From Alphaproteobacteria bacterium (GTDB lineage: Bacteria > Pseudomonadota > Alphaproteobacteria > UBA828): DNA of 64,000 nt. Both the position numbers and the translations under genes were made by a program. Shown here in pieces: positions 2,888 through 21,173 of the stretch. Where the stretch lies: assembly GCA_965200925.1 (NCBI GenBank), contig OZ241738.1:585774-649773 (forward strand). Reading direction: 5' to 3'. The notes under the pieces are model-generated. The model was not told the DNA's origin. It made no database searches and saw only the letters and a program-made list of their open reading frames with translations. How positions within the stretch are numbered: the first letter of the stretch is position 1; every line of letters starts with the position of its first letter.

Positions 2888-2944
2888 CGTCGTCCGGGAT
2901 TTCGTTCCGTGGGACAGGCGCCGGCTCGGCGGCGGCCGTGCGCC

Positions 2945-3385
2945 CTATCCGGAGCCGGGGCGACGCGCGATACGCGCGATCTCGCCTTGCACGAGGCGCT
3001 CGACGATCCCTGGCAGGTGCGTATCCAGCCATTCCCGAAGCATCGGTCGCAGCATCGCGCGCAGGTGGTCCTCGATGGCCCGATCGTCCGCGTCTGCCGG
3101 CGGCGCGTCCGGGTCCGCGCGCCGGAGCGCCCGGGCGACCTCGGCCTTGACGGAGGGCGACACCAGCGGCGCATCCGGCCAGGGGATCGGCGGCGCGGGG
3201 CTTGCGGGCTGTCCGCTCGCGGCGCTTTCCAACGCGATGACGTTACCTTTTTCGTCCACGACGTCGGTCAGGTCGAGCACGTCATCGTCCCTGGCGGGCG
3301 CACTTCTCTCCTCCGAGACGATCTCGCGAATGGAGGCCATGATTTCCTCCATCGAGGGGTTTTCTCGGGATCCGAGATCAGCCAT
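2945..3385 (-). CDS. popZ: DUF2497 / PopZ-like polar organising protein
   Basis: 146 aa with an acidic, Pro-rich middle. The N-terminal MEEIMASIREIV and C-terminal LRPMLREWLDTHLPGIVERLVQGEIARIAR match the conserved ends of PopZ/DUF2497 proteins. Confidence 0.6.
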   Translation of the reverse strand: MADLGSRENPSMEEIMASIREIVSEERSAPARDDDVLDLTDVVDEKGNVIALESAASGQPASPAPPIPWPDAPLVSPSVKAEVARALRRADPDAPPADADDRAIEDHLRAMLRPMLREWLDTHLPGIVERLVQGEIARIARRPGSG

Positions 3386-8362: not shown

Positions 8363-9529
8363 TCATTTGTACGGGTCCGCCGCGTCGCGCAACCCGTCGC
8401 CCAGGAAGTTGAAGGCGAGGACCACCAGGATCACCGGGACCACGGGCAGCATGAGCCACGGGTAGAGCGCGACGGCGTTGATGTTCTGCGCCTCGTTCAG
8501 CAGTACTCCCCAGCTGGTGATCGGCGGCCGCAGGCCGAGCCCGAGGAAGGAGAGCGCCGTCTCCCCCAGGATCATCGAGGGGATGGACAGCGTGGCCGAG
8601 GCGATGAGGTGGCTCATGAAGCTCGGCACCAGATGGCGCCCGACGATGCGGGCGGGGCGGGCGCCCATGAGCATCGCGGCGGTCGCGAAATCCTCCTCGC
8701 GCAGCGCCAGCAGCTTCGAGCGCACGGCGCGGGCGAGGCCGGTCCAGTCGATCAGCCCGAGGATGATGGTGATCCCGAAATAGACCACGATCGGCGACCA
8801 CGTGACCGGCAGGGCCGCCGACAGCGCCATCCACAGCGGCAGTTCGGGGAAGGACCGGATCACCTCGATGACGCGCTGCACGATCGCGTCCACCCAGCCG
8901 CCATAATAGCCGGAGAGGCCGCCCAGCACGAGGCCGAGAAGGAAGCTGATGGCGATGCCGAACAGCCCCACCGTGAGCGAGATGCGCGCACCGTAGATGA
9001 TGCGCGAGAGGATGTCGCGGCCGAGCCGGTCCGTCCCCAGCAGGAAGAGCGTCCCGCCCTCCGCGGGGCAGACGAAATGGAAGCGCAGCTCCACGAGGCC
9101 CCAGAACTCGTAGGCATCGCCCAAGCAGAACCAGCGGAGGGTATGGATACGGCTTTCGTCCCGGACGTAGACCCGTTGCAGCGTGTCCATGTCGAGCGCG
9201 TAGGAGAAGCCGTAGACGAAGGGCGCACGCAATTCGCCGTCGTGGAAGAGCTGGACGGCCTGCGGCGGGGCGTAGATCGAATCCGTATGGCGGGAGTGGA
9301 GGCCGTAGGGCGCCAGAAACTCACTGACGAGGATGGTGGCGTAGAGGACGAGCAGAAAAATCCCGGCGGCGACGGCGACGCGGTGGCGCTTGAGCTTCCA
9401 CCACATCATGCGCCACTGGGACGCCATGTAGAAGCGCTCCTGCTCGGGCGTGAGCGCCTCCGCCGCACCGGGGTCGAACGGCGCGCGCGAGACGTAGTGC
9501 TTGAGCCGCCCGCCTTCCCGTTCCGTCAT
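8363..9529 (-). CDS. ABC peptide-type transporter permease (YejE/DppC-like, 388 aa)
   Basis: The C-terminal part of the 744-aa track ORF holds the real product from MTEREGG. It has a BPD-transporter EAA region (LGARPARIVGRHLVPS) and multiple TM segments. The ATG at 9529 overlaps the upstream stop (ATGA). Confidence 0.85.
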   Translation of the reverse strand: MTEREGGRLKHYVSRAPFDPGAAEALTPEQERFYMASQWRMMWWKLKRHRVAVAAGIFLLVLYATILVSEFLAPYGLHSRHTDSIYAPPQAVQLFHDGELRAPFVYGFSYALDMDTLQRVYVRDESRIHTLRWFCLGDAYEFWGLVELRFHFVCPAEGGTLFLLGTDRLGRDILSRIIYGARISLTVGLFGIAISFLLGLVLGGLSGYYGGWVDAIVQRVIEVIRSFPELPLWMALSAALPVTWSPIVVYFGITIILGLIDWTGLARAVRSKLLALREEDFATAAMLMGARPARIVGRHLVPSFMSHLIASATLSIPSMILGETALSFLGLGLRPPITSWGVLLNEAQNINAVALYPWLMLPVVPVILVVLAFNFLGDGLRDAADPYK

Positions 9530-10524
9530 CGGGTCACGCCGCCGCTCAGCCGGATGCGCGGGTCGAGGGCGGCCAGCGCGATGTCGGAGACGAAGACGCC
9601 GATCACCGTCAGGAACGCCATGAACATCAGGAACGAGCCCGCGAGATACATGTCTTGCGTACGCAGCGCGTCCAGCAGCATCGGCCCGGTGGTCGGCAGG
9701 GACAGCACGACGGAAACGATCGCCGCGCCGGAGATCACCTGCGGCAGCAGGTTGCCGATGTCCCCGATAAACGGGTTGAGCGCCATGCGCAGCGGGTATT
9801 TGAACAAGAGCCGCCCGGGCGGCAGCCCCTTCGCCCGGGCCGTGACGACGTATTGCTTCTGCAACTCGTCCAGCAGGTTGGCGCGCAGCCGGCGGATCAT
9901 GCCGGCGGTGCCCGAGGTGCCGATGACCACCACCGGCACCCACAGATGTTCGAGCACCGAGAGCAGCTTGCCGCCGCTCCAGGGCTGGCCCAGATATTCC
10001 GGGTCCATCAGGCCGCCGATGGAGGTGCCGAAGGCGACGTTGGCGACGTAGAGGAGGACGAGGGCGAGCAGGAAGTTCGGCGTCGCCAGGCCGAGGAAGC
10101 CGATGAAGGTGAGCCCGTGGTCGCCCCAGCTGTATTGATGGGTCGCCGAATAGACGCCGATGGGGAAGGACACCACCCAGGTGAAGAGGATCGTCACGAA
10201 GGAGACGATGAAGGTGAGCAGCAGGCGGTCCTCGACGACCTCGTTCACCGGCAGGTTGTATTCGAAGGAATAGCCCATGTCCCCCTGGAGCAGGCCGAAC
10301 AGCCAGATGCCGTATTGCTCGACCAGGGGGCGGTCGAGGCCGTAAGCTCGGCGCAGGAATTCGATCTTCTCGGCGTTCGCGCCCTCGCCCTGGGCCTCGA
10401 GCTCGGCGATGTGGACGCTGAGATAATCGCCGGGCGGCAGCTGGATGATGATGAAGACGAGGGCGCTGATCGCGAGCAGCGTCGGGATCATGATCAGCAG
10501 GCGCCGGACGAGGAAGGTCAGCAT
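9526..10524 (-). CDS. ABC peptide-type transporter permease (YejB/DppB-like)
   Basis: 332 aa. MLTFLVRRLLIMIPTLLAISALVFIIIQLPPGDY is the canonical DppB/OppB N-terminus, and the TARAKGL motif is present. Confidence 0.9.
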   Translation of the reverse strand: MLTFLVRRLLIMIPTLLAISALVFIIIQLPPGDYLSVHIAELEAQGEGANAEKIEFLRRAYGLDRPLVEQYGIWLFGLLQGDMGYSFEYNLPVNEVVEDRLLLTFIVSFVTILFTWVVSFPIGVYSATHQYSWGDHGLTFIGFLGLATPNFLLALVLLYVANVAFGTSIGGLMDPEYLGQPWSGGKLLSVLEHLWVPVVVIGTSGTAGMIRRLRANLLDELQKQYVVTARAKGLPPGRLLFKYPLRMALNPFIGDIGNLLPQVISGAAIVSVVLSLPTTGPMLLDALRTQDMYLAGSFLMFMAFLTVIGVFVSDIALAALDPRIRLSGGVTR

Positions 10525-10595
10525 GGGGTTTCCCTGCGCCCGATTGTGTGCACCCCGCCCCCGAGCGGCAAGCCGGGGCGCCTGAGCCTGTCCGC

Positions 10596-10889
10596 ATGAA
10601 GGGCGCGTTTCCGACCCATTACCTGGTGGTCGAAGGGCTGGCGGGCGAGCAATCGACCTGGCGCGTGGTCCGGGCCGAGGAGCCCGCCCGCGGGCGGCGG
10701 CTCTACGCCTTCGTCGGCACCTGCCAGACCCGGCGCGCGGCGCTCTCCCTGGCGCGGGCGCTCAACGAGAAGCGCGCCGTCGGCCAGGAGACGCTCCGCG
10801 CGGCGGCGCGAGAGCGGGCATCGCGGCCCGCGAGCGTGGTCGGCGGCCCGCCGGCGCCCGATCCCTGCCGGCTCAGGCCCTCCTGCTGA
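10596..10889 (+). CDS. Hypothetical small protein (weak call)
   Basis: ORF 10548..10889 with an internal ATG giving MKGAFPTHYLVVEG... No recognisable motif. It lies in an otherwise empty 300-bp gap. Confidence 0.25.
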   Translation: MKGAFPTHYLVVEGLAGEQSTWRVVRAEEPARGRRLYAFVGTCQTRRAALSLARALNEKRAVGQETLRAAARERASRPASVVGGPPAPDPCRLRPSC

Positions 10890-10901
10890 CGCGGCGCGCC
10901 G

Positions 10902-11534
10902 TCAGGCGTTCCGCTTGCGGATATCCTCGATGTGATCGAGAACCCGCCCGGCGGAGACGATGTCGGCGTAGCGGCGGCCCACGTCCCGCAGGTTGTCCCG
11001 GTGCGGTCCTTCCTCCGCATCGCCGACGCAATCCTCCGGCACCATCGTGCGGTAGCCGTTGGAGAACGAATCCACCACCGACGCGCGGATGCAGCCGCTG
11101 GTCATGCAGCCCATGACGATCGTCGTATCCACGCGATTCCTGGTGAGGAAGCTGGCGACCGGCGTCTGGAAGAAGATCGACGGCGCCGATTTGCGCAGGA
11201 TGTAGTCGTAGTCCGCATCCGCCGTCCGCGGTTCCATTTCGGTGCAGGGATCGCCCTCGTAGAAGGACTCGCGGACCGGTCCGATCTTCCAATAGGGCTT
11301 GTCCCGCTCGGAGCCGTAGGCGGTGTAGCAGTTGGCGACCGGGAGGTTCGCGCGCCGGGCGGCCGCCAGCACGCGCGCGGCGTTGTCCACCGCGCGGCGG
11401 ACCAGCGGGCGGCCGCCGAGGGGGAAGCGCGGATCCGTGAAGCCGACCTGGAGGTCGACGACGAGGATACCGGGCCGTTCGCCGAAGCCGATCTCCGTCG
11501 CCTCGTAACCGATGTCCCGGTAGGTATCGGTCAT
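10902..11534 (-). CDS. Isochorismatase-family cysteine hydrolase (N-carbamoylsarcosine amidase-like)
   Basis: 210 aa. Contains LVVDLQVGF (Asp), a Lys region and the catalytic Cys context VMGCMTSGCIRAS, typical of the isochorismatase family. Confidence 0.85.
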   Translation of the reverse strand: MTDTYRDIGYEATEIGFGERPGILVVDLQVGFTDPRFPLGGRPLVRRAVDNAARVLAAARRANLPVANCYTAYGSERDKPYWKIGPVRESFYEGDPCTEMEPRTADADYDYILRKSAPSIFFQTPVASFLTRNRVDTTIVMGCMTSGCIRASVVDSFSNGYRTMVPEDCVGDAEEGPHRDNLRDVGRRYADIVSAGRVLDHIEDIRKRNA

Positions 11535-11573
11535 GTCGGGGCCTCCGCGCCGCGCGCCGTCCGGCGAAGCCTA

Positions 11574-11590
11574 CCGGAAAACGAGGCCCG
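11574..11590. repeat. Left copy of the island-flanking 17-bp direct repeat
   Basis: ccggaaaacgaggcccg, identical to 19067-19083. Confidence 0.6.
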
Positions 11591-11595
11591 GAACA

Positions 11596-11642
11596 GCCCG
11601 TCACCCCTCGATCGCCGCGTCCGGGGCGCCGGCGGCGAGGGC
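11596..11642 (-). pseudogene. Relic 3' end (last ~14 codons plus stop) of a type IIG restriction-methylase gene
   Basis: 41/47 nt are identical to 14965-15011, the true 3' end of the upstream type IIG gene. This copy encodes ...ALAAGAPDAAIEG* against ...ALAAGKPDAKIEG* there. It lies 10 nt after the stop of the 319-aa gene. Confidence 0.7.
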
Positions 11643-11652
11643 CACTTCGACT

Positions 11653-12612
11653 TCAGCGGCGGGTGATCTTCGGCCCGACGTAGACGATGCAGACCGGCTC
11701 CCCGGGGCGGAACGACCACCAGAAATGCAGGCGCAAAGTGGGGCTTCGTACCTTGCCGTGCCACGAGCAGAACAAGGTGCCGCCGGCATCGCCGGGGTCG
11801 GGGAACGTCATTTCGTTGCGAAAATCGCGCCTCTCCGTGGGGGACGAATCGGAAAACAGCGCATTGCGACCCCTGAAGTGGTCCTGATGGATCCGGTTTC
11901 CTTCGGGCGTCCGCCTGCCGGACCGGTCGAAAGCACCCGCGAGACGGTCCAGGATGTTCAGCAGTATCAGGATGCGCTCTGACGCGCTCGCGGAGAACGG
12001 ACTCCCGTCGAGGGGTTGGAAGGCGTTGTCGGCGAAGGTCAGGCGTGTGAAGCGGCGCACCGAGGCGTTTCGCAAATCTCCCCACGACCGGACCGGTGGC
12101 GCCGCGGCGCGCAGCCCGTTTTCCAAAGCGGCGGGGGCGCGCCAGTTTTCGAGGGCTGCCTGCCGGTCTTCCAGTCCCTCGGCCTCCCGCCGCCACGCCA
12201 CCTCCACAGGCGAGAAGTCCCAGTCGGAAGGGACGACCCCGACGAGACCGCATTCGATTCCGTGAAGTTTCCGGTACGCGGCTTCGCCGACGACGGAATC
12301 GGTGACGACGTCGCCCCGGCACTCCAGCCAGTCGTCGGACCCGTGCCGGCGAAGATCGTCCCAGAACGGACCGCCTTTCGTCAGCCAGCGCATTGCGGAA
12401 CGGCGCTCGCTTTCCGACAGACACCCGATCGCCTGCTGCATCGAAACGCCCGGCAACGGTTCGACGGCCAGCAGCGCGCGGTGGCAATGAACGTCGCGCT
12501 CGTGGTGCCGGGCAACCGCGCGCATCGTCATCAGCCTGCCGAATGCGCCGCGAAACGATTGCAGGTCGTGGAATTGCCCGTGGATCGACAGGTCGTTGAC
12601 GAAAAGCTCCAC
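11653..12612 (-). CDS. Hypothetical protein, third gene of the DUF262/DUF3696 cassette (319 aa)
   Basis: GTG start with a GGAG SD, 1 nt after the ATPase stop. I recognise no family motif. The C-terminus reads FCSWHGKVRSPTLRLHFWWSFRPGEPVCIVYVGPKITRR. Confidence 0.6.
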   Translation of the reverse strand: MELFVNDLSIHGQFHDLQSFRGAFGRLMTMRAVARHHERDVHCHRALLAVEPLPGVSMQQAIGCLSESERRSAMRWLTKGGPFWDDLRRHGSDDWLECRGDVVTDSVVGEAAYRKLHGIECGLVGVVPSDWDFSPVEVAWRREAEGLEDRQAALENWRAPAALENGLRAAAPPVRSWGDLRNASVRRFTRLTFADNAFQPLDGSPFSASASERILILLNILDRLAGAFDRSGRRTPEGNRIHQDHFRGRNALFSDSSPTERRDFRNEMTFPDPGDAGGTLFCSWHGKVRSPTLRLHFWWSFRPGEPVCIVYVGPKITRR

Positions 12613-12613
12613 G

Positions 12614-13756
12614 TCAACTCCAGCCGGCGAAGTAGTTCATGTCCTTGTCGAACTGATCGAAGAACCCGTCTGGCCAGGAGTCGAGGTTGCCGGCTTCGTC
12701 CAGGGCCGGGCTCTGCACTTGGGCGCCGCCGCCCCGGGCGTCGTCGCGGCACGGCCGGAAGAAGTGCACCGCAGCGTCGCCGGCGGACAGCGTCCCGTCC
12801 CTGACCGCCCGGCGAATGCCGTTCAGGACGTGGTCGCTGTGCGTCTCGAGGAGGACCTGAACGCCGGCCGCGGCGACCTCGGTCAGGAACTTCCCCATCG
12901 CCGCCTGTCCGGCGGGGTGGAGATGCACTTCCGGGTTCTCGATCAGCAGCAAGCCGTCCCGGTCCGCGGACAAGGCCGCAACGACGATGGGAAGCACCTG
13001 GGTGAGGCCGAAACCGGTGTGAGCCGGGCGGTGAAAGTCCATATCGCTGGAGGTGCGAAGCCCCAGCAGCGCCGCATTGGCGCCGACGACCTCCCTGACC
13101 TCCAGTCCGCAGCCGGGGAAGAACCGGGCCATCCGCGCCTCGACCTGCCGCAGCCGGGTGCCGGGCACGCCTGGAAGCCGCAGGCGGTCCGGCACGTCGT
13201 CGTCGCGGCCGGCATGAAGAACGCTGACGGTATGCTCTCCTCGCGGGCCGACGACCGGCGCGCCTTGCGGATCTTCCAGAGGATAAGTTTCGCGCGGACC
13301 CAGCCGTTCCGCCGTCAGGTAGGTCAGCGTCCGAAGCCGTTGCGCCAACCGCCCATCCCCGTGCGGAGATGGCAACAAGTGGCGAAGACCGGTCGGACGG
13401 TCATGCTCGGTGCCGGCGACGGCGAGGCGGGCGACGTCCATCGACATGCCTTCGCGTTCACCCGCAAACGTCCATCGAAAGACCGTATCGCCATCCAGCA
13501 GGCCGATTTCGCACTCGCGGCGTCCCTGGACCTGATCGATCACGTCGGCGACGGTGCCGAGGCGGACGGCCGCGCCGTTCAGCATCAGCCGCGGCGACCA
13601 TTCATGCTCGCGCATCGTCTGGTGCAGGAGCGCCAGCCCCTGCAGGACCGTCGATTTCCCCGAGGCGTTGGCGCCGGAAAGAAGGGTCAGCGGGCGGAGG
13701 GGCAGCTTCAGCCCGCCGAAACACTTGAAATGACGGAAATCAATTCGTGTGAGCAC
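12614..13756 (-). CDS. DUF3696-type AAA/ABC-like ATPase
   Basis: 380 aa. N-terminal FRHFKCFGGLKLPLRPLTLLSGANASGKSTVLQ (Walker A), GFGLTQVLPIVVA, Walker B/D-loop LLLIENPEVHLHP and ETHSDH are present. The C-terminal WPDGFFDQF is characteristic of the DUF3696 tail. GTG start with a GGGGAG SD. Confidence 0.85.
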   Translation of the reverse strand: MLTRIDFRHFKCFGGLKLPLRPLTLLSGANASGKSTVLQGLALLHQTMREHEWSPRLMLNGAAVRLGTVADVIDQVQGRRECEIGLLDGDTVFRWTFAGEREGMSMDVARLAVAGTEHDRPTGLRHLLPSPHGDGRLAQRLRTLTYLTAERLGPRETYPLEDPQGAPVVGPRGEHTVSVLHAGRDDDVPDRLRLPGVPGTRLRQVEARMARFFPGCGLEVREVVGANAALLGLRTSSDMDFHRPAHTGFGLTQVLPIVVAALSADRDGLLLIENPEVHLHPAGQAAMGKFLTEVAAAGVQVLLETHSDHVLNGIRRAVRDGTLSAGDAAVHFFRPCRDDARGGGAQVQSPALDEAGNLDSWPDGFFDQFDKDMNYFAGWS

Positions 13757-14846
13757 TCAGAACTCCCCTGAACACGTCCCGAGCCTTTTGGAACCGATAC
13801 TTCACCTTTCTGGCGTCGTTGGGGCCGTAGGTGATTGCGGTATTGAACTCCTCGTCGTCGAGAAGCCGGTGGACGGCATCGCGAAGAGCGTCGGCACGCG
13901 CTTCGACCCTGTCCCGGGCGTAACGGCACAGGCCGGTGGACATCACGTCCCAGAACGAGGCGTTGAGAACGCTGCGCCGGTGAGGTTCCCTGGATTTCCT
14001 GAAGGCGTGTTCTCCGAACAGCATGTGATTGTTCTCGAGGCCTCGGCGGAACCGGCGGGACAGCTGCGAGAGTTCGGCTTCGTCCATCTCGTTCATGCGG
14101 CGCAGGCATTTGGCGAGAAAGTCGTCCATGTCGCCGCGGTAGTCGTCGCGATCGAGAAGGCGAAAGGCACAAAATCGATTGACGAACTCCCGGTCGCGCA
14201 TGGTCTTCCTGTTCAGGCTTCCACCGGTCGACAATACAAAAATCTCGGTTTGCGATTCCTCCTTGAGGAACTTCGTTGCCGCGCCCATGAACAGGCAATT
14301 ACGCATCTGCTGCCTCGTGAGCGGCACGCCGCTGTTCACCCTTTCGAAGATGTCCAGACGGGCGCGCTCGGGCACCTTCGAGTCGATGATGTAGAACGTG
14401 AGGTTGCAATCCTCGACGCGGTTCTTGAGCTTGGGTGGTAGATCCGAGAATTTTTTCCGGTGCAATTCGCCTCGATCTGGAAGATCAAGCGGCAATTCAT
14501 CTTTCACGAACCGCCGAAACGTGGACAGGCGCTGCAAACCGTCCACCACCACCATCCGCCCTTCTTCGTCCTCCGCCATGTAGAACACCGGCAGCGGAAT
14601 ACGCAAGATGACGGATTCGATCAGCTTGCTCTGCTTGTCGGGAGGCCAGAGGAATTCGCGCTGAAAATCAGGGTCCAGGATGTAGGTGTTCCGGTCGATC
14701 CGCCGCATGACGCCGTGAATCGTCCGGTTTTCCTGCCGGATCAGAAGCTCGTCGATGGGATACGTGCCCCACGATCCGCTCTCGGGATCCAGGCCCTCGA
14801 TTTTCTCCGGCGGGTCGACGTCCCCTGTCGTCTCGTGCGCGCTCAC
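13740..14846 (-). CDS. DUF262 (ParB/Srx-fold, GmrS-like) protein
   Basis: 368 aa. Contains DPDFQREFLWPPDKQSKLIESV and VVDGLQRLSTF (a DGQQR-type motif). GTG start with a GGAGG SD. The 3' end overlaps the ATPase start by 17 nt. The gene is visibly more AT-rich than its surroundings. Confidence 0.85.
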   Translation of the reverse strand: MSAHETTGDVDPPEKIEGLDPESGSWGTYPIDELLIRQENRTIHGVMRRIDRNTYILDPDFQREFLWPPDKQSKLIESVILRIPLPVFYMAEDEEGRMVVVDGLQRLSTFRRFVKDELPLDLPDRGELHRKKFSDLPPKLKNRVEDCNLTFYIIDSKVPERARLDIFERVNSGVPLTRQQMRNCLFMGAATKFLKEESQTEIFVLSTGGSLNRKTMRDREFVNRFCAFRLLDRDDYRGDMDDFLAKCLRRMNEMDEAELSQLSRRFRRGLENNHMLFGEHAFRKSREPHRRSVLNASFWDVMSTGLCRYARDRVEARADALRDAVHRLLDDEEFNTAITYGPNDARKVKYRFQKARDVFRGVLSAHTN

Positions 14847-14865
14847 CGTCTGGCCTCCACCGGAA

Positions 14866-14908
14866 GGAAGCGTCCGTGCCGACGGTAGCCGATGGCACGG
14901 ACTCTTCC
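14866..14908. other. Strong hairpin between the type IIG gene and the DUF262 gene
   Basis: The arms ggaagcgtccgtgcc (14866-14880) and ggcacggactcttcc (14894-14908) are complementary at 14/15 positions with a 13-nt loop. There is no U-run, so it is not a canonical terminator. Confidence 0.5.
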
Positions 14909-14969
14909 AGAGTCATCACACGGCGAATCGGGAGTCAATTAATTTCGCTTCCCGACCAGCCGCGGCCCG

Positions 14970-17900
14970 TTACCCCTCGATCTTCGCGTCCGGTTTGCCG
15001 GCGGCGAGGGCGTTGAGCCAGGCGAGGCAGAGGTCGCGGGAGCGGTAGCGGCCGTGGGAGGCGCGCTCCTGGCGTTCGACGATGGGGAAGGTGGAATAGA
15101 CGTAGCGGACGTCGTCGCGGTCGGTCACGCCGTAGAGGTGGAAGAAGAGGGCGTCGAGGCGGGCGCGCAGCCGCAAGCGGCGGTCCTCGTCCCAGGGAGG
15201 TGAGTTCCAGCACCGATTCGCGGACGATCTCGGCGGCCGTCTTCGGCCCGAAACGGACGGCGTCGTAGCGCGCGGGCGGGACCACGGGGAGTTGCTCCAG
15301 GACGAACCAGGTGAAGTGCGTCGCCGGAACCTTCTGCCTGGCGACGAAATCGAACACCAGGGCATTCAGGTTCGCGACGATCGAACAAGCCAGAGCGGCC
15401 CGATCCGTCGCGGCGTCTTCCAGCGGGAGCAAGGGAAGGGTGTGCCCGGCTCCGGCGCGCGGCACGATTGCCGCAATCATGGTGCGCATGTTGGTGGAAG
15501 CGGTGATGTCCTTGAAGGCGACGGCCCACCGGTCGCTCCAACGCCAGCGCTCGGGATCGTCCATGACGTAGTAGCGGGGGGTCGGGAAATGGTCGGGGTC
15601 TCGTTTCCGTGAGGCTTCGGCGGTTTCCTGTTGGCCGGGCCGGAACAGATTGTCCGGGTTCACGACGATGTCCGCCGCGCGGTGGTCGAAGGCTTGCACC
15701 ATCTTGCCTTCGTAGAGCGGCACCCACGCGCCTGCGGGGCTGGCGAAGCGGTTGCCGCCGACGGGCCACGCGCCTTCCTTCTCCTCCAGTTCCGCGCGGG
15801 TGCGGAAGAGGGCGGAGTCGTTGGCCATGTCGAACATGCGCGTGTAGCGCACCGGCCACGCCTTCGCTTCATCGCCTGCCGAGCGGTCCACCAGCACCGG
15901 CAGCCGTTCGTAGATCGCCACGGTCAATTCGGCGTCGCGGCGGGTGCGGAAGACGGGCGCGGTGCCGGTGTTGGGGTTGACGCGGGCGAAATCCGCCGCC
16001 GCCAGGGGGAAGCGGCGTTCCGGGTCCTCGCTCTCGGCCACGGCTTGCAGGAAGAAGGCGCAGCGCGCAGGCGCGCCCGCCGGTGCTCGGCCGGCGACGA
16101 AGGCGCAGAACTTGAAGCTTCGATGAACCTCCGGGAAGAAGGGCGGCGCCGCGTGGCGCGTGCGTCGGTTCTCGAAATCGTAGAGCGCGCGCAGCCGGCC
16201 TTCCGTCGCCACGCCTCTGAAGAAGCGGGCCGCCGTCTTGTCGGAGGCGATGCCGGAGGGCACCAGCAGGCCGACCACGCCTTCCGGCTTCGCCAGCGCC
16301 AGGGCGCGCTCGACGAACAGGCTGTAGAGGTTCACGTCGCCGCCGGAGAGCAGCGGGTAATCGCCGCAGGTCCGCGCCATGCGGGCCCTGTCCGCCGCCC
16401 GGGCGCCGGCCCGCGCGAAATCGCGGGCGAGCGGGTCCCCGGCCCTTTCCAGCGCGGCGACCAGGCGCCGGCGGTCGGCGGCGCGCGGGGCGTTCGCGAT
16501 CTCGGGCCGGCGGGCCGCGAACCATTCGACCTGTTGCAGCTTCACCCTGTCCCAGGGCGGGTTGCCGATCACGGCGTCGAAGCCGCCCTCGGGCGCGTCG
16601 CTCTCCCACTGCGACCAGACGCCGGGGAAGGCGACCTGCCAGTTCAGGAAGCGCTCCTCGGCGGCGAGCGCCCGCGCCTGGGCGAGGAGGCCGGCGAAGC
16701 GCTTTCCCTCAGCCCCGCGCGCGGCCGGTGCGCATGCGCCGCACACGATGGCGACGGGGTCGCCGAAGCGGCCCGCGAAGAAGGATTGGAGCGCCGTCCG
16801 GTCCTCGGGCGCCCGCAGGCCGAGCCAGTCGAAGGCGTGGACCAGGGCGAGAATCCGGTCGAGCGGTGCGGTCATCGCCTCGACCTCGGCGAAGGTTTCG
16901 GCGGAGCGGTGCGCCTCGGCGATTTCCGCGTCCGTGAGCGCCTCGATGGCCGCCATGCCCCGCGCCGCACCGGCGGCGCGGGTGATCGAATCGTGCAGCA
17001 GGAGCGGCGTTCCGTGTTCCGCCGCCTTGTCGATGCCGGCGCGCACCCGGGCGCCGAACAGGCTGTCGCCGCAGCGCAGATGGTGGTCGAGGAAGGAGAG
17101 CGGCGCGCCGACGGTGAAGGTATGCAGCCAGAGCGAGACCTTGGCGAGCTCCACCGCCATCGGGTTCTTGTCCACGCCGTAGACGCAGCGCTTGAGCACC
17201 ATGCGCCGCACGACGTGGCGGTCGTCGAGGCGTTCGGGAGCGACGGCCCAGCCGTTCGCCTCGGCGTTGGCGCGGACGGTGGCGCGGGTGGCCTCGATGC
17301 GGTCGGCGAGCGGCGAACGGTATGCGCCCCAGTCGACCGCCGCCTCCGCTTCGGCCATGGCGGCGATGGTCCGGTCGGCGAGCCAGTCCACCAGATTGAC
17401 CAGGAAATGCCCGGAGCCCATGGCCGGGTCGCAGACCTTGAGCGCCAGCAGGCGTTCGGCCGGGTCGAGCGCGCGCAATTCGGCGAGGCGAAGCGCGGCG
17501 TCGCGCCGGTCCCCGAGTTCCTCGGCGCGGGCGCGGAACGCCGCCATGGGCGCGGCGGCGAGCGGCCCCAGAGTCTCGTCGAGGATCAGGCCGACCAGAT
17601 CGTCCGGCGTGTAGTAGCTGCCGGAGTCCTTGCGCGCGAAGACGTCGGGGCGGACGGCGATGCTCCCGCCCTCCGCCGCGAGCGCGCGCTCCAGCAGGCG
17701 TTCGTAGACGGAGCCCAGCTGGCGGACGCCGAGATCGCGGTAGTTGATGTACTTGCGGCGCCCGTCCGCCGTCCGTTCGAAGGAGAGCGCGTCGATGACG
17801 TCGGCCATGACCGCATCGCCCAGCCGGACGCGGCCGAGCAGCGGCGTGCGGGCGCGGTCGAACAGGCCGCCGTCGTAGGGCGGCAGGCCGATGGAGGCGT

Positions 17901-18981
17901 CGCCGGCGTCGATGGCGCGGCAGAGGTCGTCGACGGCCGACCAGTAACGGGCGGCGCTCTCGGAGAAGACGTCGCCCTCGTCCTTGCGCCGCCCGACGTC
18001 GCCGCGCACCTTCGCGCGCAGGGCGTAATCGTCGTAGCGCGAGTCGCGGACGGGCAGCAGGTCGCGGTCCTCGGCATAGAGGATGAAGAGGAGGCGGTAG
18101 AGCAGGACAAGCCCGGCCTCGCGCACCTCCGCCAGCGGCGCGTCCGGCGCGGCGGCGGCGATGGCGCGGGCGAGCTGCGGGAAGACCCGCTCGAAGACCT
18201 TGGCGGAGAGATCGCCGGCGACGCGCTCCTCGTGGAAGCGGCCTTCGTCGACGGCGTAGCGGTGGAAACTCGCCGCCCGTTCCGCGCCGGGCAGGAAGGC
18301 CGCGCGCCGGAAGACCAGCGCGAAGACCTTGAGCCAGTGGCGGCGGGCCTCCGATGCCGGGGCGAACAGGTCGCCGCCCGCCGCCGCGGGGGTGAGGAGC
18401 GCCGCCAGGTCGATCTCGAAGAACTGCTCGGAGACGGAGCGCGCGCCCTGCCAGTAGAGCCGCCAGCAGGCGCCGTTGGTGAGGATGCCCCAGCGCAGCC
18501 CGCCTTGCGTCAGGTCCTCCACCCGGCGCAGGTAGCGGAGCATCTGGGTCGACGGCGCGGTCTCCTCGCCGTGCACGCCTGAGCGGCGGTCGAGCGGGCG
18601 CCGCCAGCGCTTGGATTCGACCAGCGCCGCGCCCAGCGCGTAGCGCCGCCACTCCTCCGGCAAGGCGTTGGCGCGGGCCTTCGCGGCTGCGTCGGCGAAG
18701 AGCAGGCCGTCCGGCACGTGGTCGCGCCCGCGGGCGCTCAGGTTCTGCTGCCGCAGGCTCTGCGTCCAGCCGAGGCGCCGGAGGACGGGCCAGATCAGGT
18801 CGTCCTCGGTCTGGCTTTCGTTGGGGGTGCCTTCGCTGGGGAAGCGGGCGAGGAGCGCGCCGAGGTCGCGTTCGAGGGCGTCGAGCGCCGCGTCGTCGAG
18901 CGCCTTCCAATCCGCCGAGCCGGCGATCGTGTCGCACAGGAAGCCGTCGGCGAACAGGCCGCCGCGGGAAAGGTTCTCCAT
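14970..18981 (-). pseudogene. Type IIG (Eco57I/MmeI-like) fused restriction endonuclease-N6-adenine methyltransferase, frameshifted near the 3' end
   Basis: ATG at 18981 with a GGAG SD (MENLSRGGLF...). N-terminal PD-ExK-like motif (VPDGLLF...LVESKRW), methyltransferase motif I VCDPAMGSGHFLV and motif IV GNPPW are present. After ...RESVLELT (about 15199) the conserved tail PPWDEDRRLRLRARLDALFFHLYGVTDRDDVRYVYSTFPIVERQ...KIEG* continues in another frame (track ORF 14970..15365). The 4012-nt span is not a multiple of 3. Confidence 0.8.
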
Positions 18982-19020
18982 ACGCGCTCCGGCGGGAGGT
19001 CCCCGTTCCATAGCCCCGGT

Positions 19021-19063
19021 GCGCGCCGCGCGGAAGTGTTTTTCGCGCGCCCGCGCGGCGCGC
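19021..19063. other. Perfect 13-bp GC-rich inverted repeat just inside the right island boundary
   Basis: gcgcgccgcgcgg (19021-19033) and ccgcgcggcgcgc (19051-19063) are separated by aagtgtttttcgcgcgc. It lies between the coxS-like stop and the type IIG start, so it may be a terminator/insulator or an operator. Confidence 0.45.
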
Positions 19064-19066
19064 GCC

Positions 19067-19083
19067 CCGGAAAACGAGGCCCG
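19067..19083. repeat. Right copy of the island-flanking 17-bp direct repeat
   Basis: ccggaaaacgaggcccg, identical to 11574-11590, 15 nt from the coxS-like stop. Confidence 0.6.
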
Positions 19084-19097
19084 CCGGCGGGGGGCGG

Positions 19098-19607
19098 TCA
19101 CGCCTCCGTTTCCGCCGGCGGCGGTGCGGGCTTCAACCCGTGGCGCATGGCGGACGCCGCGAGGACCGCGGCGACGATCCGCGCCTCGTCGCCGCAGCGG
19201 CACGGATTGCCGCGCAGCGCGCGGCGCACGTCCGCCGCGCTCGGGTCGATGTTCTCCTCCAGGAAATCCACCATGTTCGTCAGGATGCCGCCCGTACAAT
19301 CGCCGCACCGGGCGGCGCGATAGCGGCGGAACGCCTCGCGCAAATGGCGCGGCGTGCCGCGGCGGGCGAGCCCTTCGGCGGTGGTCACGGCCTTGCCGTC
19401 GAGCTGCACCGCGAGCTTCAGGCAGGATTTGTACGCCCTGCCCTCGATCAACACCGTGCAGGCCCCGCATCGTCCCGCGTTCGCGCAGCCGGCGAGCGTC
19501 CCCGCGTGCCCGCCCGCGTCGCGGATGAAATCGACCAGGAGGAGGCTCAAGGGCACGGTCCGCGCGTGCGCCGCGCCGTCGATCGTCACCGTGACGGTCT
19601 TGCGCAT
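19098..19607 (-). CDS. (2Fe-2S)-binding small subunit of a xanthine dehydrogenase/CO dehydrogenase-family enzyme (CoxS-like)
   Basis: From MRKTVTVTIDG. The Cys patterns GCANAGRCGACTV...SCL and RCGDCTGG...NPCRCG correspond to the two [2Fe-2S] sites. Confidence 0.8.
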   Translation of the reverse strand: MRKTVTVTIDGAAHARTVPLSLLLVDFIRDAGGHAGTLAGCANAGRCGACTVLIEGRAYKSCLKLAVQLDGKAVTTAEGLARRGTPRHLREAFRRYRAARCGDCTGGILTNMVDFLEENIDPSAADVRRALRGNPCRCGDEARIVAAVLAASAMRHGLKPAPPPAETEA

Positions 19608-19611
19608 GGCC

Positions 19612-20565
19612 TTATCTCTTCGCCGCGCGGGCGCAGGCCGCGGCCAGGGCATCGCGGCCGAGGGTGCGGATCAGCGCCTTGCGGCGCTCGCCGCTCGCCG
19701 CGGCGTCCGACTGCGCCTCGATGGCGTCGGCGGCCGCGGCGGCGGTTTCGGCAAAAACCGCCCGCCCGCCCGGCCGGCCGCGCAGCAGGTCGTCGATCTC
19801 GTCGAAGCGCCGGGCCGTCGGCGCAAGGCCGCCCACGGCGAAGCGGGCGCCGGTGCAGCGCCCCGCCTCGTCGATCTCGACGGCGGCTGCGACCCCGACG
19901 ACCGGCGGGCCGCCCGGCGTGGCGTCGTCCGGCGTGGCGCTGTCCGGCGTGGCGCCGTGCTTGCGATAGGCGCTGCCGACGCCCCGGTATTTCGGTGGGG
20001 GGAAGATGATCTCGACCAGGAGCTCGTCGTCCTGCCGCACCGTTTCGTCCGGCCCGGTGAGGAAGGCGTCGATCGGCACGGCCCGCGTGCCGCCGGCGGC
20101 CGAGGCGAGCACCAGCGTCGCGCCGAGGCAGAGGCAGACAGCGGGCATACAGGAGGCGACGGCGTTCCAGCACAGGCCGCCGCCGATGGTGGCGGCGTTG
20201 CGCAGCTGCCGGTCGCCCAGCGCCGCCGCCGCGTCGCCGACGGCCTGCAAGGCGCCGTGCAGGCCCGAGGTGGCGGCGAGCGCGCGACAGCGCGTCATCG
20301 GGCGCACGGTCAGGCCGCGCGGCCCCCGCGCGAGGCCGCTCAATTCCTCCACCCCGTTCAGGTCGATGAAGGCGCGCGGCGCGACCGGCTGCGCGCCCGC
20401 GTTCACGCAAGACCGCGCCGGCATCAGACTCGTGCCGCCGGCAAGAAACGCCGCCCCGCCCCCGGCGAGGCACCCGAGCGCCTCGTCGATGGTCCGCGGC
20501 GCGTGGAATGCCTCGAGTGTCGTCGAACAGGGCGGGCGTGAAGACAGGGGGGCCGTCGGCGGCAT
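19612..20565 (-). CDS. FAD-binding medium subunit of a molybdopterin dehydrogenase (CoxM-like)
   Basis: 317 aa. The FLAGGTSLMP motif and RNAATIGGGL are typical of the FAD_binding_5/CO-dehydrogenase flavoprotein fold. The start codon is uncertain. Confidence 0.8.
   Translation of the reverse strand: MPPTAPLSSRPPCSTTLEAFHAPRTIDEALGCLAGGGAAFLAGGTSLMPARSCVNAGAQPVAPRAFIDLNGVEELSGLARGPRGLTVRPMTRCRALAATSGLHGALQAVGDAAAALGDRQLRNAATIGGGLCWNAVASCMPAVCLCLGATLVLASAAGGTRAVPIDAFLTGPDETVRQDDELLVEIIFPPPKYRGVGSAYRKHGATPDSATPDDATPGGPPVVGVAAAVEIDEAGRCTGARFAVGGLAPTARRFDEIDDLLRGRPGGRAVFAETAAAAADAIEAQSDAAASGERRKALIRTLGRDALAAACARAAKR
19914..19958. repeat. 15-bp x3 in-frame tandem repeat inside the coxM-like gene
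   Basis: ccggcgtggcgtcgt / ccggcgtggcgctgt / ccggcgtggcgccgt, encoding ATPDS-ATPDD-ATPGG on the minus strand. Confidence 0.8.
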
Positions 20566-20618
20566 GTCGGACGTCTCATCCCGATCCGCGCGCCTGCGTC
20601 CCCCTCACCGGCGTGACG

Positions 20619-21173
20619 CTACCGGTTGGCGCCGGGGACCCAGAGCACGTCGGCGGCGCCGTCTTCGTTGAGGTGGCGGGCCAGGACGAAGAGGTGGTCG
20701 GAGAGGCGGTTGGCGTAGGTCAGGGCCAGCGGGTTCACCGGCTCGGCCGCCGCCAGCGCGGCGATCAGCCGCTCCGCGCGACGCACCGTCGTCCGCGCGA
20801 GGTGAAGGGCGGCGGCGGCGCGGGAGCCGCCGGGCAGGACGAAGGAATCGAGCGGGCGGAGACGCGCGTTCATGGCGTCGATCTCGCCTTCGAGCCGGTC
20901 GATCTGGGATCGGGCGATGCACAGCCCCTCTTCGAGCGGCCCCGGGCGGCAGAGGTCGGCGCCGAGATCGAACAGGTCGTTCTGGATGCGGGCGAGCATC
21001 GCGTCCGCCGCGCCGCCGGTCTCGGTCCGCGCCATGCCGATCGCGGCGTTCGCCTCGTCGACCGTCCCGTAAGCCTCCACCCGCCGGTCGTGCTTGGCGA
21101 CCCTGGCCCCGCCGCCGAGGGAGGTCTCGCCGGCGTCGCCGCCGCCGGTGTAGATGCGGGTCAGCTTGACCAT
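20619..21173 (-). CDS. ATP:cob(I)alamin adenosyltransferase, PduO type
   Basis: 184 aa. MVKLTRIYTGGGDAGETSL...RVEAYGTVDEANAAIG is the canonical PduO-type N-terminus. Confidence 0.9.
   Translation of the reverse strand: MVKLTRIYTGGGDAGETSLGGGARVAKHDRRVEAYGTVDEANAAIGMARTETGGAADAMLARIQNDLFDLGADLCRPGPLEEGLCIARSQIDRLEGEIDAMNARLRPLDSFVLPGGSRAAAALHLARTTVRRAERLIAALAAAEPVNPLALTYANRLSDHLFVLARHLNEDGAADVLWVPGANR

Follow-up and report, generated by a model that had tools for sequence, protein, structure and literature searches.

A relic of a type IIG gene end behind a Menshen operon in an alphaproteobacterial lineage

Menshen, or NsnABC, is an anti-phage system that was reportedly described by Millman et al. 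in 2022. Genomic islands offer another comparison: where an integrase inserts them at the ends of genes for tRNA, tmRNA or proteins, gene 3' ends are duplicated, and the target gene remains whole since its new end comes with the incoming DNA. Small gene sets that occupy one position between conserved genes, often for restriction-modification or defence, have been described in Neisseria as 'minimal mobile elements' (Saunders & Snyder 2002 as cited in PMC1797815; PMC3787668). They have no recombinase and are exchanged by recombination in their flanks (PMC1797815; PMC3787668).

Here we analyse a 64-kb window (the whole stretch of DNA presented above) in which a copy of a type IIG gene end lies behind a Menshen operon. 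This relic is a real but ordinary recombination scar, which belongs with an isochorismatase module and is not a record of defence-gene capture. The locus resembles minimal mobile elements in that the interval from the type IIG end to a permease gene holds Menshen or an isochorismatase module, in three upstream contexts. Unlike minimal mobile elements, two alternative cargos are stacked here with a flanking-gene fragment between them, and the left anchor is a defence gene that is mobile in its own right. As in islands at gene 3' ends, repeats derived from a gene 3' end bracket the cargo, the clear case being the Binatia genome L039 described below. Unlike integrase islands, there is no integrase or excisionase, the core is not identical and the duplication differs between the cases (47 versus 345 nt). 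Since the relic decays, it is not a maintained attachment site.

The Menshen operon and the type IIG gene

The following features make up the defence part of the locus.

14970..18981, minus strand: type IIG restriction-methylase gene (Eco57I/DrmMI-like; Pfam, PADLOC), a pseudogene here
15195..15198, minus strand: scar of a 59-nt deletion (ACC-TCCC-TGG); relatives have 63 nt encoding YTAHDMAPFARALGH..PFP; the two flanks match L090 at 99-100% identity
14847..14969, minus strand: leader that separates the type IIG gene from NsnA and carries a -35-like TTGACT as well as two hairpins; kept in all relatives
13740..14846, minus strand: NsnA (ParB/DUF262, GmrSD_N); PADLOC NsnA E=7.6e-115, Pfam GmrSD_N E=8.1e-22
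12614..13756, minus strand: NsnB (ABC-type ATPase with C-terminal DUF3696); PADLOC NsnB E=1.2e-98, Pfam AAA_15, AAA_21 and DUF3696 E=4e-12
11653..12612, minus strand: NsnC (effector); PADLOC NsnC E=2.4e-105, residues 1-319 of 319

The triad behind the type IIG gene is the already known Menshen system NsnABC. The NsnA, NsnB and NsnC domains are all present, the genes overlap or abut in the order A-B-C on one strand, and phage protection is predicted. With the three Menshen genes in Menshen order, the system itself is ordinary. The NsnA gene has a GC content of 0.589. NsnC homologues in syntenic relatives are 82-97% identical, and the window and L090 differ by 14 amino-acid changes in NsnC against 0/175 fourfold-site changes. 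NsnC evolves fast in Menshen systems according to a comparative analysis (PMC12065111).

Menshen placed immediately behind a type IIG gene is a peculiarity of the window's lineage. We compared the window with metagenome relatives including L081, L083, L084, L086, L088, L090, L091 and L174. Wherever a relative spans that side (L083, L084, L088 and L090), the triad lies immediately 3' of the type IIG gene. Nsn genes were found at none of 80 type IIG homologue loci, 69 of which had at least 3.5 kb of downstream sequence, and none of 80 Menshen loci had a member of this type IIG family nearby or a tail-like peptide after NsnC. The preliminary description of this DNA had proposed that the triad moves in physical linkage with the ends of type IIG genes. 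Adjacency holds within the lineage, whereas general linkage fails as a rule from either side.

The type IIG product matches Pfam Eco57I (E=1.4e-19) and the PADLOC models DrmMI (E=1e-79) and REase_MTase_IIG (E=9e-55), and holds an Eco57I-type gamma-class N6-adenine methylase domain inside one large polypeptide. No nuclease-domain model matched it in profile searches, and an N-terminal endonuclease domain with cleavage activity is putative. With type IIG enzymes of the Eco57I/MmeI kind and the DrmMI methylases of DISARM it has in common the Eco57I domain, a length of ~1350 aa and a conserved C-terminal module of ~110 aa, which is common to homologues in many phyla. Unlike in DISARM, the window's DrmMI-like gene has no DISARM partner genes nearby. 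Unlike Eco57I/MmeI-kind enzymes, the window's copy is broken by the 59-nt deletion; enzyme activity and specificity are putative. The leader between this gene and NsnA has a folding z-score of -3.2.

The reading frame through the conserved C-terminal module is interrupted in the window. Near 15197 the long ORF at 14935-19470 departs from the conserved frame; from there the frame of ORF 14970-15365 encodes the conserved C-terminus, as had been remarked from the sequence at first sight. Position 15197 had also been taken for the junction between foreign and resident DNA. Instead, it is a deletion private to the window, with 4 nt there versus 63 nt in L088, L090 and L174, and on either side of it the window and L090 are 97-100% identical. 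L083, L084, L088 and L090 have an intact frame (1350-1375 aa). Because the 59-nt deletion shifts the frame, the window's type IIG gene is a pseudogene.

The relic and the states of the slot

The relic and the genes to its right comprise the following features.

14965..15011, minus strand: gene-linked copy, the type IIG gene's last 13 codons (ALAAGKPDAKIEG), TAA stop and CGGGC
11643..11652, minus strand: 10-nt spacer after the NsnC stop (AGTCGAAGTG), common to relatives with and without the relic
11596..11642, minus strand: relic of the type IIG gene end, its last 13 codons (ALAAGAPDAAIEG), TGA stop and 5 nt (CGGGC)
11535..11595, minus strand: leader of the isochorismatase gene, invariant among relic-bearing relatives
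10902..11534, minus strand: isochorismatase-family hydrolase gene (Pfam Isochorismatase E=3e-28), first gene of a 1.05-kb module
10596..10889, plus strand: orf97, an uncharacterised convergent ORF that accompanies the isochorismatase gene, also in L091
10567..10580, minus strand: right joint of the extra module (CGCCCCGGCTTGCC), the permease leader start common to relic-free relatives
9526..10524, minus strand: ABC-transporter permease gene, the right-hand flank kept in all relatives

Pairwise alignment within the window confirmed that 11596-11642 and 14965-15011 are direct repeats with 41/47 identity, and no other copy occurs in the 64 kb. The pair is the top-ranked direct repeat in a search of 9000-21000; its longest identical run is 15 nt, and its edges are sharp (17/56 and 13/58 identity just outside both copies). 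Allowing up to 3 mismatches, a degenerate 39-nt pattern hit only the two copies in the window, and 100 shuffles gave 0 hits. Read on the minus strand, the gene-linked copy is ALAAGKPDAKIEG-TAA-CGGGC and the relic, which begins 10 nt past the NsnC stop codon (11653-11655), is ALAAGAPDAAIEG-TGA-CGGGC. Both encode the family-wide C-terminus of Eco57I-like type IIG proteins, ALAAGxPDAxIEG-stop. Since the motif ...LCLAWLNALAAGxPDAxIxG/L-stop ends nearly all 80 homologues, across many phyla, the relic truly derives from the end of a type IIG gene. The gene ends of the 79 other family members match it at 36/47 positions at most (mean 29.4), so that 41/47 stands above the family background. Between the coding part of the relic and the live type IIG end of L084, 41/42 bases agree.

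The gene-linked copy has T on the plus strand at each of the six mismatches, as first noticed, which had suggested an AT-rich foreign tail. The gene-linked tail is not AT-rich, with a GC content of 0.706 and a GC3 of 0.947. The mismatches are confined to the stop codon and two codons (K/E/A and K/P/A) at which close strains are hypervariable, and the live tails depart from the relic stepwise: L084 by 1 coding base, L090 and L088 by 5 bases each and the window by 6. The live tails read EPDAK (L088, L090), KPDAP (L174), APDAA (L084) and EPDAA (L083).

The relic shows no sign of function. Neither 47-nt copy has a terminator-like site in a terminator scan or an Rfam match, and they fold no better than shuffled sequence (z = -0.8 and -0.4). 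Together with the copy number and the motif in the 80 homologues, this upholds the initial view that the relic derives from a type IIG 3' end and is not an intergenic or terminator element. Relic variants in L081, L088 and L090 carry 1-3 changes each. All six of these changes are GC-to-AT transitions, and they represent at least five events, since one G-to-A change is common to L081 and L090. The 61-nt isochorismatase leader beside the relic is invariant in the window and these three relatives. The relic is non-coding and decays neutrally.

At least three states were observed for the slot that runs from the type IIG end to the permease leader. In L083, L084 and L086, the type IIG gene is followed by Menshen and the permease gene, and the relic is absent. 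In the window, L088 and L090, the order is type IIG, Menshen, relic, isochorismatase, orf97 and permease; L081, which is covered from NsnA onward and excludes the type IIG gene, shows part of this order. In L174, the type IIG gene is followed by the isochorismatase gene. The type IIG-NsnA leader is fused to the isochorismatase gene there, and L174 is a secondary deletion form that lost Menshen and the relic.

The relic was found only together with the isochorismatase-orf97 module between NsnC and the permease gene (window, L081, L088 and L090), and it lies at the upstream edge of this 1.05-kb module. In an alignment (A1) of the window, L081, L083, L084 and L086, the NsnC stop, the 10-nt spacer and GGCCCT are common to all five. 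Relative to the other three, the window and L081 carry ~1057 extra nt that start inside the relic and end at the permease leader, where the right joint CGCCCCGGCTTGCC is similar to CGCCGCCGGC within the relic. The proximal ~55 nt of the isochorismatase leader are homologous to the corresponding leader in L091, in another genomic context, and isochorismatase homologues of 80-84% identity sit in unrelated contexts. Since L091 has the leader and orf97 (which has no Pfam match) without the relic, the module is a translocated unit.

The distribution of these states bears on age. The flanking genes give the tree ((window clade, L084/L086), L083), with fourfold-site divergences of 0.065-0.084 versus 0.22-0.33, which places the relic-free state in both the sister lineage and the outgroup. 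The preliminary description had taken the relic as the mark of triad capture, and the relic-free loci of L083, L084 and L086 speak against this. All relatives have in common both the leader from the type IIG gene to NsnA and the junction 3' of NsnC, and thus the linkage of type IIG and Menshen is older than they are. With 41/42 identity to the live L084 end, the relic is preserved too well to be as old as that linkage and is younger, an argument that draws on few substitutions at 47 sites. Because genes are exchanged at the locus, the flank tree reflects the history of the joint imperfectly. Divergence is discordant between block and flanks (Fisher p=0.008 and 7e-6), and L088 holds a ~550-nt type IIG segment with 92% identity to L083 and 75% to L090; both point to exchange between strains. 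Together with the L174 deletion, they suggest that the locus is recombinogenic.

A parallel occurs in the Binatia genome L039, where the resident type IIG tail has left a relic of 345 nt behind a low-GC insert of 4.5 kb, for which L044 represents the empty site. This is an independent and clean parallel with a different cargo.

Origin of the relic

Recombination at the C-terminal end of the type IIG gene, as proposed at the outset, is the likely cause of the relic. We favour, with a probability of roughly 55%, that the relic is the scar of a Menshen-type and an isochorismatase-type allele stacked by microhomology-guided unequal recombination. It would mark the joint of two cargo modules that use one slot, from the type IIG gene to the ABC-permease gene. 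The stacked form would most likely stem from a single event between a Menshen-type allele and a presumed, unsampled allele with the isochorismatase module directly after its type IIG gene. GTG-GCCCTC-C.. after NsnC may have paired with GCCCTCGCCGC in the type IIG tail of the other allele, and the second crossover would have fallen in homologous flanking DNA. The relic would then be the type IIG end of the isochorismatase-type allele, drifting neutrally since the stacking. Exact 11-mer matches to the type IIG tail region occur ~0.09 times per 80 nt in this GC-rich DNA, which is enough for chance microhomology. Against this proposal, no full-length type IIG gene directly before TGACGGGC-TGTTCCGGGCC-isochorismatase was found among the alleles examined, the only type IIG-isochorismatase adjacency being the secondary deletion in L174. 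Moreover, relic-free relatives retain GCCCTC and 3-5 further tail-like bases after NsnC, which could be the remnant of a longer, older relic instead of chance microhomology. As to capture by recombination, the import of a type IIG-Menshen block into a resident type IIG-isochorismatase allele would fit, and the opposite polarity would fit equally.

The rival closest to the preliminary description takes its model literally. The relic would have been made at the first capture of the triad, when a foreign type IIG 3' part and Menshen replaced the resident C-terminal region in an ancestor with the isochorismatase module after its type IIG gene; the relic-free relatives would later have lost the rest of the relic, the isochorismatase gene and orf97 by deletion between short CGCC(G)CCGGC repeats. 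The extra segment is indeed bounded by an imperfect direct repeat, CGCCGCCGGC in the relic and CGCCCCGGC at 10572-10580, and L174 attests kilobase-scale microhomology-guided deletions at the locus. L083 and L084 keep GCCCTCGCTGC and GCCCTCACCAC after NsnC, which differ from the tail GCCCTCGCCGC only by GC-to-AT transitions. The relic has the A/A state seen in L084, the sister lineage, which is what a resident tail would show, and L039, from another lineage, has the same polarity, with the cargo beside the gene and the resident tail behind. However, the same deletion would be needed twice (in L083 and in L084/L086), or once followed by spread through recombination. A neutral 47-mer as old as the coalescence of the block (fourfold divergence 0.10-0.21) predicts ~4-10 changes, whereas 1/42 is observed against the live allele, and within the clade the relic mutates at or above the fourfold-site rate. 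With no junction at 15197 and no AT-rich foreign signature in the tail, we consider the combined scenario unlikely. A templated filler would dispense with the isochorismatase-type allele altogether: the module would have been inserted behind NsnC from elsewhere in the same genome by replicative or template-switching repair, which would first have copied 47 nt of the type IIG end 3.3 kb upstream. Short microhomologies at all three joints (GCCCTC, GGC and CGCC.CCGGC) agree with this, as do the missing isochorismatase-type parent among the relatives and the relic's likely earlier local tail state, seen in L084. Yet the live tail must then have changed 4-6 bases in two codons fast, or been replaced, and the model gives no reason for the copy to end exactly 5 nt after the stop codon, the point at which relatives have other cargo starting. 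To our knowledge, multi-template insertions of this type have seldom been documented in bacteria, and we regard this origin as quite improbable.

That the 47-mer is a functional or generic element (a terminator, REP-like sequence, attachment site or transposon target duplication) or a chance match has a negligible probability. It is intergenic, directly behind an operon, and the direct repeats bracket cargo, but two copies occur in 64 kb versus 0 by chance, relatives have the same operon without it, and it varies among near-identical strains beside an invariant leader. The terminator, Rfam and folding results given above also speak against it, and only NsnABC lies between the copies, with no integrase, transposase or tRNA gene. 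An integrative element with attL and attR was rejected: there is no recombinase, NsnABC alone is inside, the neighbours are the isochorismatase gene and a 2Fe-2S subunit gene, and the 6 mismatches in 47 nt and the variable relic leave no identical core. A transposon or IS target duplication was likewise rejected, with no transposase, no terminal inverted repeats reported and an imperfect duplication of 47 nt, and so was an intrinsic terminator, REP-like or RNA element, with no terminator-like site, no Rfam match and two copies only.

More broadly, the strongly conserved ~110-codon C-terminal module of this type IIG family might act as a recombinase-free docking handle. Through recombination in the common tail, defence cargo 3' of one family member could enter any genome that has another member, sometimes leaving tail relics of 47-345 nt. 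The two independent relics, in the alphaproteobacterial lineage and the Binatia genome, are compatible with this idea, as are five sampled type IIG 3' neighbours with HEPN, SIR2-like, TIR, PLD-like or ApeA-HEPN domains. We think it doubtful that the idea holds.

The practical content of the locus is modest, namely a known Menshen triad, a dead restriction gene and a relic without sign of function. Presence and absence among relatives reversed the obvious reading from the sequence alone, and a duplicated gene end beside a defence operon does not necessarily date that operon's capture or account for it, a caution for annotation. The slot behind the restriction gene varies within one population, and defence loci can thus grow and shrink without dedicated mobility genes, while short gene-end fossils preserve the order of events at a locus.

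A type IIG gene end behind a Menshen system

The direct repeats at 11596-11642 and 14965-15011 are identical at 41 of 47 positions, and just outside both of them identity falls to about 25-30%. They form the top-ranked direct repeat of their region, and a degenerate 39-nt pattern matched only these two sites in the window and none in 100 shuffles. On the minus strand, the gene-linked copy reads ALAAGKPDAKIEG-TAA-CGGGC and the relic (11596-11642) reads ALAAGAPDAAIEG-TGA-CGGGC, beginning 10 nt past the stop codon of a 319-aa gene, NsnC. At all six differences, the gene-linked copy has T on the plus strand. The preliminary description had reported this pair, and its identity, frame, spacing and six T were confirmed in every detail.

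Genes of the locus (window positions)
14970-18981, minus strand (start codon 18981-18979): Eco57I-like type IIG gene (Pfam Eco57I, E=1.4e-19; PADLOC REase_MTase_IIG, E=9e-55; DrmMI, E=1e-79)
Minus strand: NsnA (PADLOC NsnA, E=7.6e-115)
Minus strand: NsnB (PADLOC NsnB, 1.2e-98)
11653-12612, minus strand: NsnC (PADLOC NsnC, 2.4e-105)
10902-11534, minus strand: isochorismatase-family gene, downstream of the relic
10596-10889, plus strand: convergent 97-aa ORF (orf97)
9526-10524, minus strand: ABC permease gene

Judged by its profile matches, the triad NsnA-NsnB-NsnC is the already known Menshen defence system. Its architecture is as described for Menshen (PMC12065111), and the triad has every sequence feature that defines the system. 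The type IIG gene has those of its class, save that the window copy is frameshifted.

We compared the relic with the ends of 80 type IIG homologues (56-69% amino-acid identity) from Binatia, Alpha- and Gammaproteobacteria, Gemmatimonadota and others. Nearly all of them end in ...YRSRDLCLAWLNALAAGxPDAxIxG/L-stop. Over their last 47 nt, agreement with the relic reaches 36 of 47 positions at most (mean 29.4), so the 41/47 found in the window lies above the family background. By sequence, the relic is a genuine type IIG gene end. A terminator, a REP or other dispersed repeat and a known RNA were ruled out, given two copies in the window and negative terminator, RNA-family and folding checks. An attachment site or transposon duplication was likewise rejected, as there is no recombinase and the repeat is imperfect and decaying.

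Two further observations concern the Menshen genes. NsnC differs between the window and the relative L090 at 17 nt, which cause 14 amino-acid changes with none at 175 fourfold sites, and the NsnC genes of two other relatives (L084 and L086) differ by 14.5% where their flanks differ by 3-5%. This pattern fits the strong diversifying selection or allele exchange that has been reported for Menshen NsnC (PMC12065111). On the minus strand at 14847-14969, and above all at ~14871-14903 and 14914-14940, the leader between the type IIG gene and NsnA has a more stable predicted fold than its shuffled versions (z=-3.2). It includes a 9-bp hairpin just 5' of the NsnA ribosome-binding site, with a compensatory change in L084 (GUCCGUGCC/GGCACGGAC to GUCCGCGCC/GGCGCGGAC); there is a -35-like TTGACT upstream. 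The leader may be a regulatory element of Menshen.

Relatives with and without the relic

Exact-sequence look-ups of the window isochorismatase and NsnC proteins gave no match; syntenic metagenomic contigs were reached via homologue searches with the same two proteins. Two of these, L088 and L090, have the full window layout with an isochorismatase 98-99% identical. The 5.1-kb contig L081 has this layout from NsnA onward (NsnC 97% identical) and ends short of the type IIG gene. L083 and L084 carry the type IIG gene, NsnA, NsnB and NsnC with the same permease gene directly behind, and lack both the isochorismatase module (the 1.05-kb isochorismatase-orf97 unit) and the relic. L086, which starts inside NsnA, has the same NsnC-permease junction as these two. 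In an alignment of such junctions from the window, L081, L083, L084 and L086, the NsnC stop, the 10-nt spacer and GGCCCT are common to all five sequences, while the window and L081 have ~1057 extra nt, from inside the relic (after GGCCCT) to CGCCCCGGCTTGCC in the permease leader. Since this extra segment starts in the relic, and relatives without the relic also lack the module, the relic is tied to the module and not, as had been proposed, to the triad: L083, L084 and L086 have Menshen without it. The live type IIG end of L084 is ALAAGAPDAAIEG-TGA, which encodes the same peptide as the relic and differs at one of 42 coding bases.

The preliminary description had also placed a junction between foreign and resident sequence near 15197. 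Homologues there read ELT-YTAHDMAPFAR...PF-xWDEERR, whereas the window reads ELT and then PWDEDRR out of frame. Between ACC and TGG, L088, L090 and a further relative, L174, have 63 nt against 4 nt in the window (15195-15198). This is a frameshifting 59-nt deletion private to the window, with codons YTAHDMAPFARALGH..PF lost, and its flanks are 99-100% identical to L090 on each side. The gene is intact in L088 and L090, strains 98-99% identical to the window, and the window Menshen is also intact. Because the break is a private deletion with L090-like flanks, the window copy of the type IIG gene became a pseudogene only recently, and there is no such junction at 15197.

The relatives show other differences as well. 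In L088, the last third of the type IIG gene contains a segment of ~400-550 nt (5701-6250; window ~15300-15700) that is 92% identical to the distant L083, ~75% identical to L090, L084 and L174 and 63% identical to the window (200-nt windows), among strains that are otherwise 97-100% identical. It resembles a specificity-determining segment that has been swapped. After a luciferase-like gene, L090 carries two additional genes (L090 14735-19713; window ~3889-4281), absent from the window and L088, which encode a 407-aa AAA_16 ATPase and a 1252-aa protein of ~129-nt tandem repeats. The window clade, L084 and L083 lose synteny 16-38 nt before the start codon of the type IIG gene (window ~18981-19020; L084 3475; L083 3557). 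Beyond this point, each of the three lineages has wholly different genes, namely 2Fe-2S/FAD dehydrogenase subunits, an esterase with RadC, and a DUF433-DUF5615 pair. As only type IIG-Menshen-permease-OppC is shared by L083, the whole four-to-six-gene block may itself move.

Timing and origin of the relic

In the flanking permease genes, the window diverges at fourfold-degenerate sites by 0.065-0.084 from L084 and by 0.22-0.33 from L083, which makes L083 the outgroup. The relic-free state is thus present in sister and outgroup alike. The linkage of type IIG and Menshen predates these splits, because every relative shares the leader between type IIG and NsnA as well as the junction 3' of NsnC. 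The relic varies inside the window clade (fourfold divergence 0.01-0.03) by six base changes, two in L081, one in L088 and three in L090. All are GC-to-AT transitions, and they represent at least five events since L081 and L090 have one G-to-A change in common. The 61-nt isochorismatase leader beside the relic is invariant in the four relic-bearing loci. The relic is unconstrained, and its rate of mutation equals or exceeds that of fourfold sites. If it were as old as the Menshen linkage, it should be far more degraded than 1/42 relative to a live allele, so the relic arose near or after the window-L084 split.

The live type IIG tails end in EPDAK (L088 and L090), KPDAK (window), KPDAP (L174), APDAA (L084) and EPDAA (L083), and their stop codons vary between TGA and TAA. 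The six differences between relic and gene-linked copy fall in two codons that are hypervariable among strains a few percent apart and in the stop codon, and they built up stepwise. The last 228 nt of the type IIG gene (GC 0.706, GC3 0.947) are not GC-poor like the triad (0.59-0.68, against a window average of 0.706). The foreign AT-rich type IIG allele that had been invoked to explain the differences is rejected.

Isochorismatase homologues 80-84% identical occur in unrelated contexts without a type IIG gene. One locus, L091, has about 55 nt of isochorismatase leader and orf97 in common with the window and no tail-like sequence upstream. The module is a translocated unit, its left edge joined 5 nt past a type IIG stop codon (joint between tail and module, GAGGGGTGACGGGCTGTTCCGGGCC). 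We considered L174 as a Menshen-free type IIG-isochorismatase parent allele and ruled this out, because an NsnA leader is fused to a truncated isochorismatase leader. In its 259-nt spacer (2887-3145), the NsnA leader (AATTGACTCC..GTGTGATG..GCGCCGCATGCC) is joined to the proximal isochorismatase leader. The retained leader makes L174 a deletion derivative, which lost ~3.3 kb with Menshen and the relic at a GCC microhomology. The relic originated before L174 branched off (fourfold divergence 0.04-0.06). The L174 spacer also contains ~170 inserted nt; with their long inverted repeats (GCCGGCGTCCCGCCGG...CCGGCGGGACGCCG), they resemble a small mobile element of palindromic type.

The layout is explained most economically if two alleles of one slot (the position between the type IIG gene end and the ABC permease gene), one of Menshen type and one of isochorismatase type, recombined unequally. 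With the left joint at GCCCTC(GCCGC) and the second crossover in the homologous flank, the two cargos would end up stacked and a 47-nt piece of the type IIG end from the second allele would be trapped. An 11-nt match (GCCCTCGCCGC) is weakened as proof of an older relic: chance alone yields about 0.09 such 11-base matches for every 80 nt of this DNA, so older homology at the left joint is not required. Either polarity of the exchange fits. Import of type IIG and Menshen into an isochorismatase-type resident, the direction first proposed, agrees with the L084-like A/A state of the relic and with the window-L084 block being more diverged than its flanks (111/897 vs 32/426 fourfold sites, p=0.008). 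The opposite direction, in which the isochorismatase module entered a Menshen-type resident, agrees with the relic-free Menshen allele found in both sister and outgroup. From its sequence, the locus is clearly recombinogenic, as seen in the mosaic type IIG segment of L088 and the loss of synteny 16-38 nt upstream of the type IIG start in three lineages. Between the window and L083, the block is less diverged than its flanks (p=7e-6).

The slot resembles the minimal mobile elements of Neisseria, which often hold restriction-modification genes, in having alternative cargo at one position (PMC1797815; PMC3787668). The repeat pair resembles the flanking gene-end duplications of integrase-borne islands. 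The window locus falls outside these element classes, since it has no recombinase, maintained core repeat or terminal inverted repeats.

Cargo behind type IIG genes in other genomes

None of the 80 type IIG homologue loci has Nsn genes (69 with at least 3.5 kb downstream). Conversely, 80 metagenomic Menshen loci (45 with at least 500 nt upstream of NsnA) showed neither a nearby member of this type IIG family nor a tail-like peptide after NsnC. The preliminary description had inferred that the triad travels with type IIG gene ends; with 0/80 from either side, the Menshen-type IIG linkage is specific to this lineage and not general. What lies 3' of the type IIG genes varies extremely: 210 ORFs form 189 clusters, without a conserved partner gene. 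Five of seven sampled 3' neighbours have domains typical of defence or conflict (HEPN, SIR2-like, TIR, PLD-like and ApeA-HEPN); the other two are a pentapeptide-repeat protein and a protein without a Pfam match. These five are the first ORFs 3' of the type IIG homologues in L007, L013, L023, L030 and L038, from other phyla. The place behind this restriction gene is often taken by other defence-type genes.

A tail relic recurs once, in the Binatia MAG contig CBDESS010000001.1 (L039), where a second copy of the last 345 nt of the type IIG gene lies 4.9 kb downstream.

Type IIG tail copies in L039 (first 300 nt 96% identical)
13601-13945: gene-linked copy
18477-18821: downstream copy

Between the copies lies a 4.5-kb low-GC (0.53) insert encoding a P-loop protein of ~1440 aa, for which Pfam and PADLOC gave no match; the relative L044 is the empty site. 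Over the last 45 nt, the downstream copy matches L044 at 41 positions and the gene-linked copy at 34, and the downstream copy runs on into L044's downstream sequence. As the downstream copy is the L044-like one, the L039 cargo came with its own type IIG end. A ~195-nt segment just upstream of the L039 relic (18284-18479) is repeated at 19732-19905, a layout suggestive of two alternative 'tail-cargo-X' units set one behind the other.

Of the reading in the preliminary description, the identification of the relic as a type IIG gene end stands; the 15197 junction, the AT-rich import, the tie to the triad and the general linkage do not. The defence locus is variable, and the relic in it is a scar of ordinary recombination, informative on local history and no new kind of system. 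The more interesting possibility beyond an ordinary scar, resting on two cases and in our estimate an unlikely one, is that the conserved tail of the type IIG family may be a general docking handle for defence cargo.
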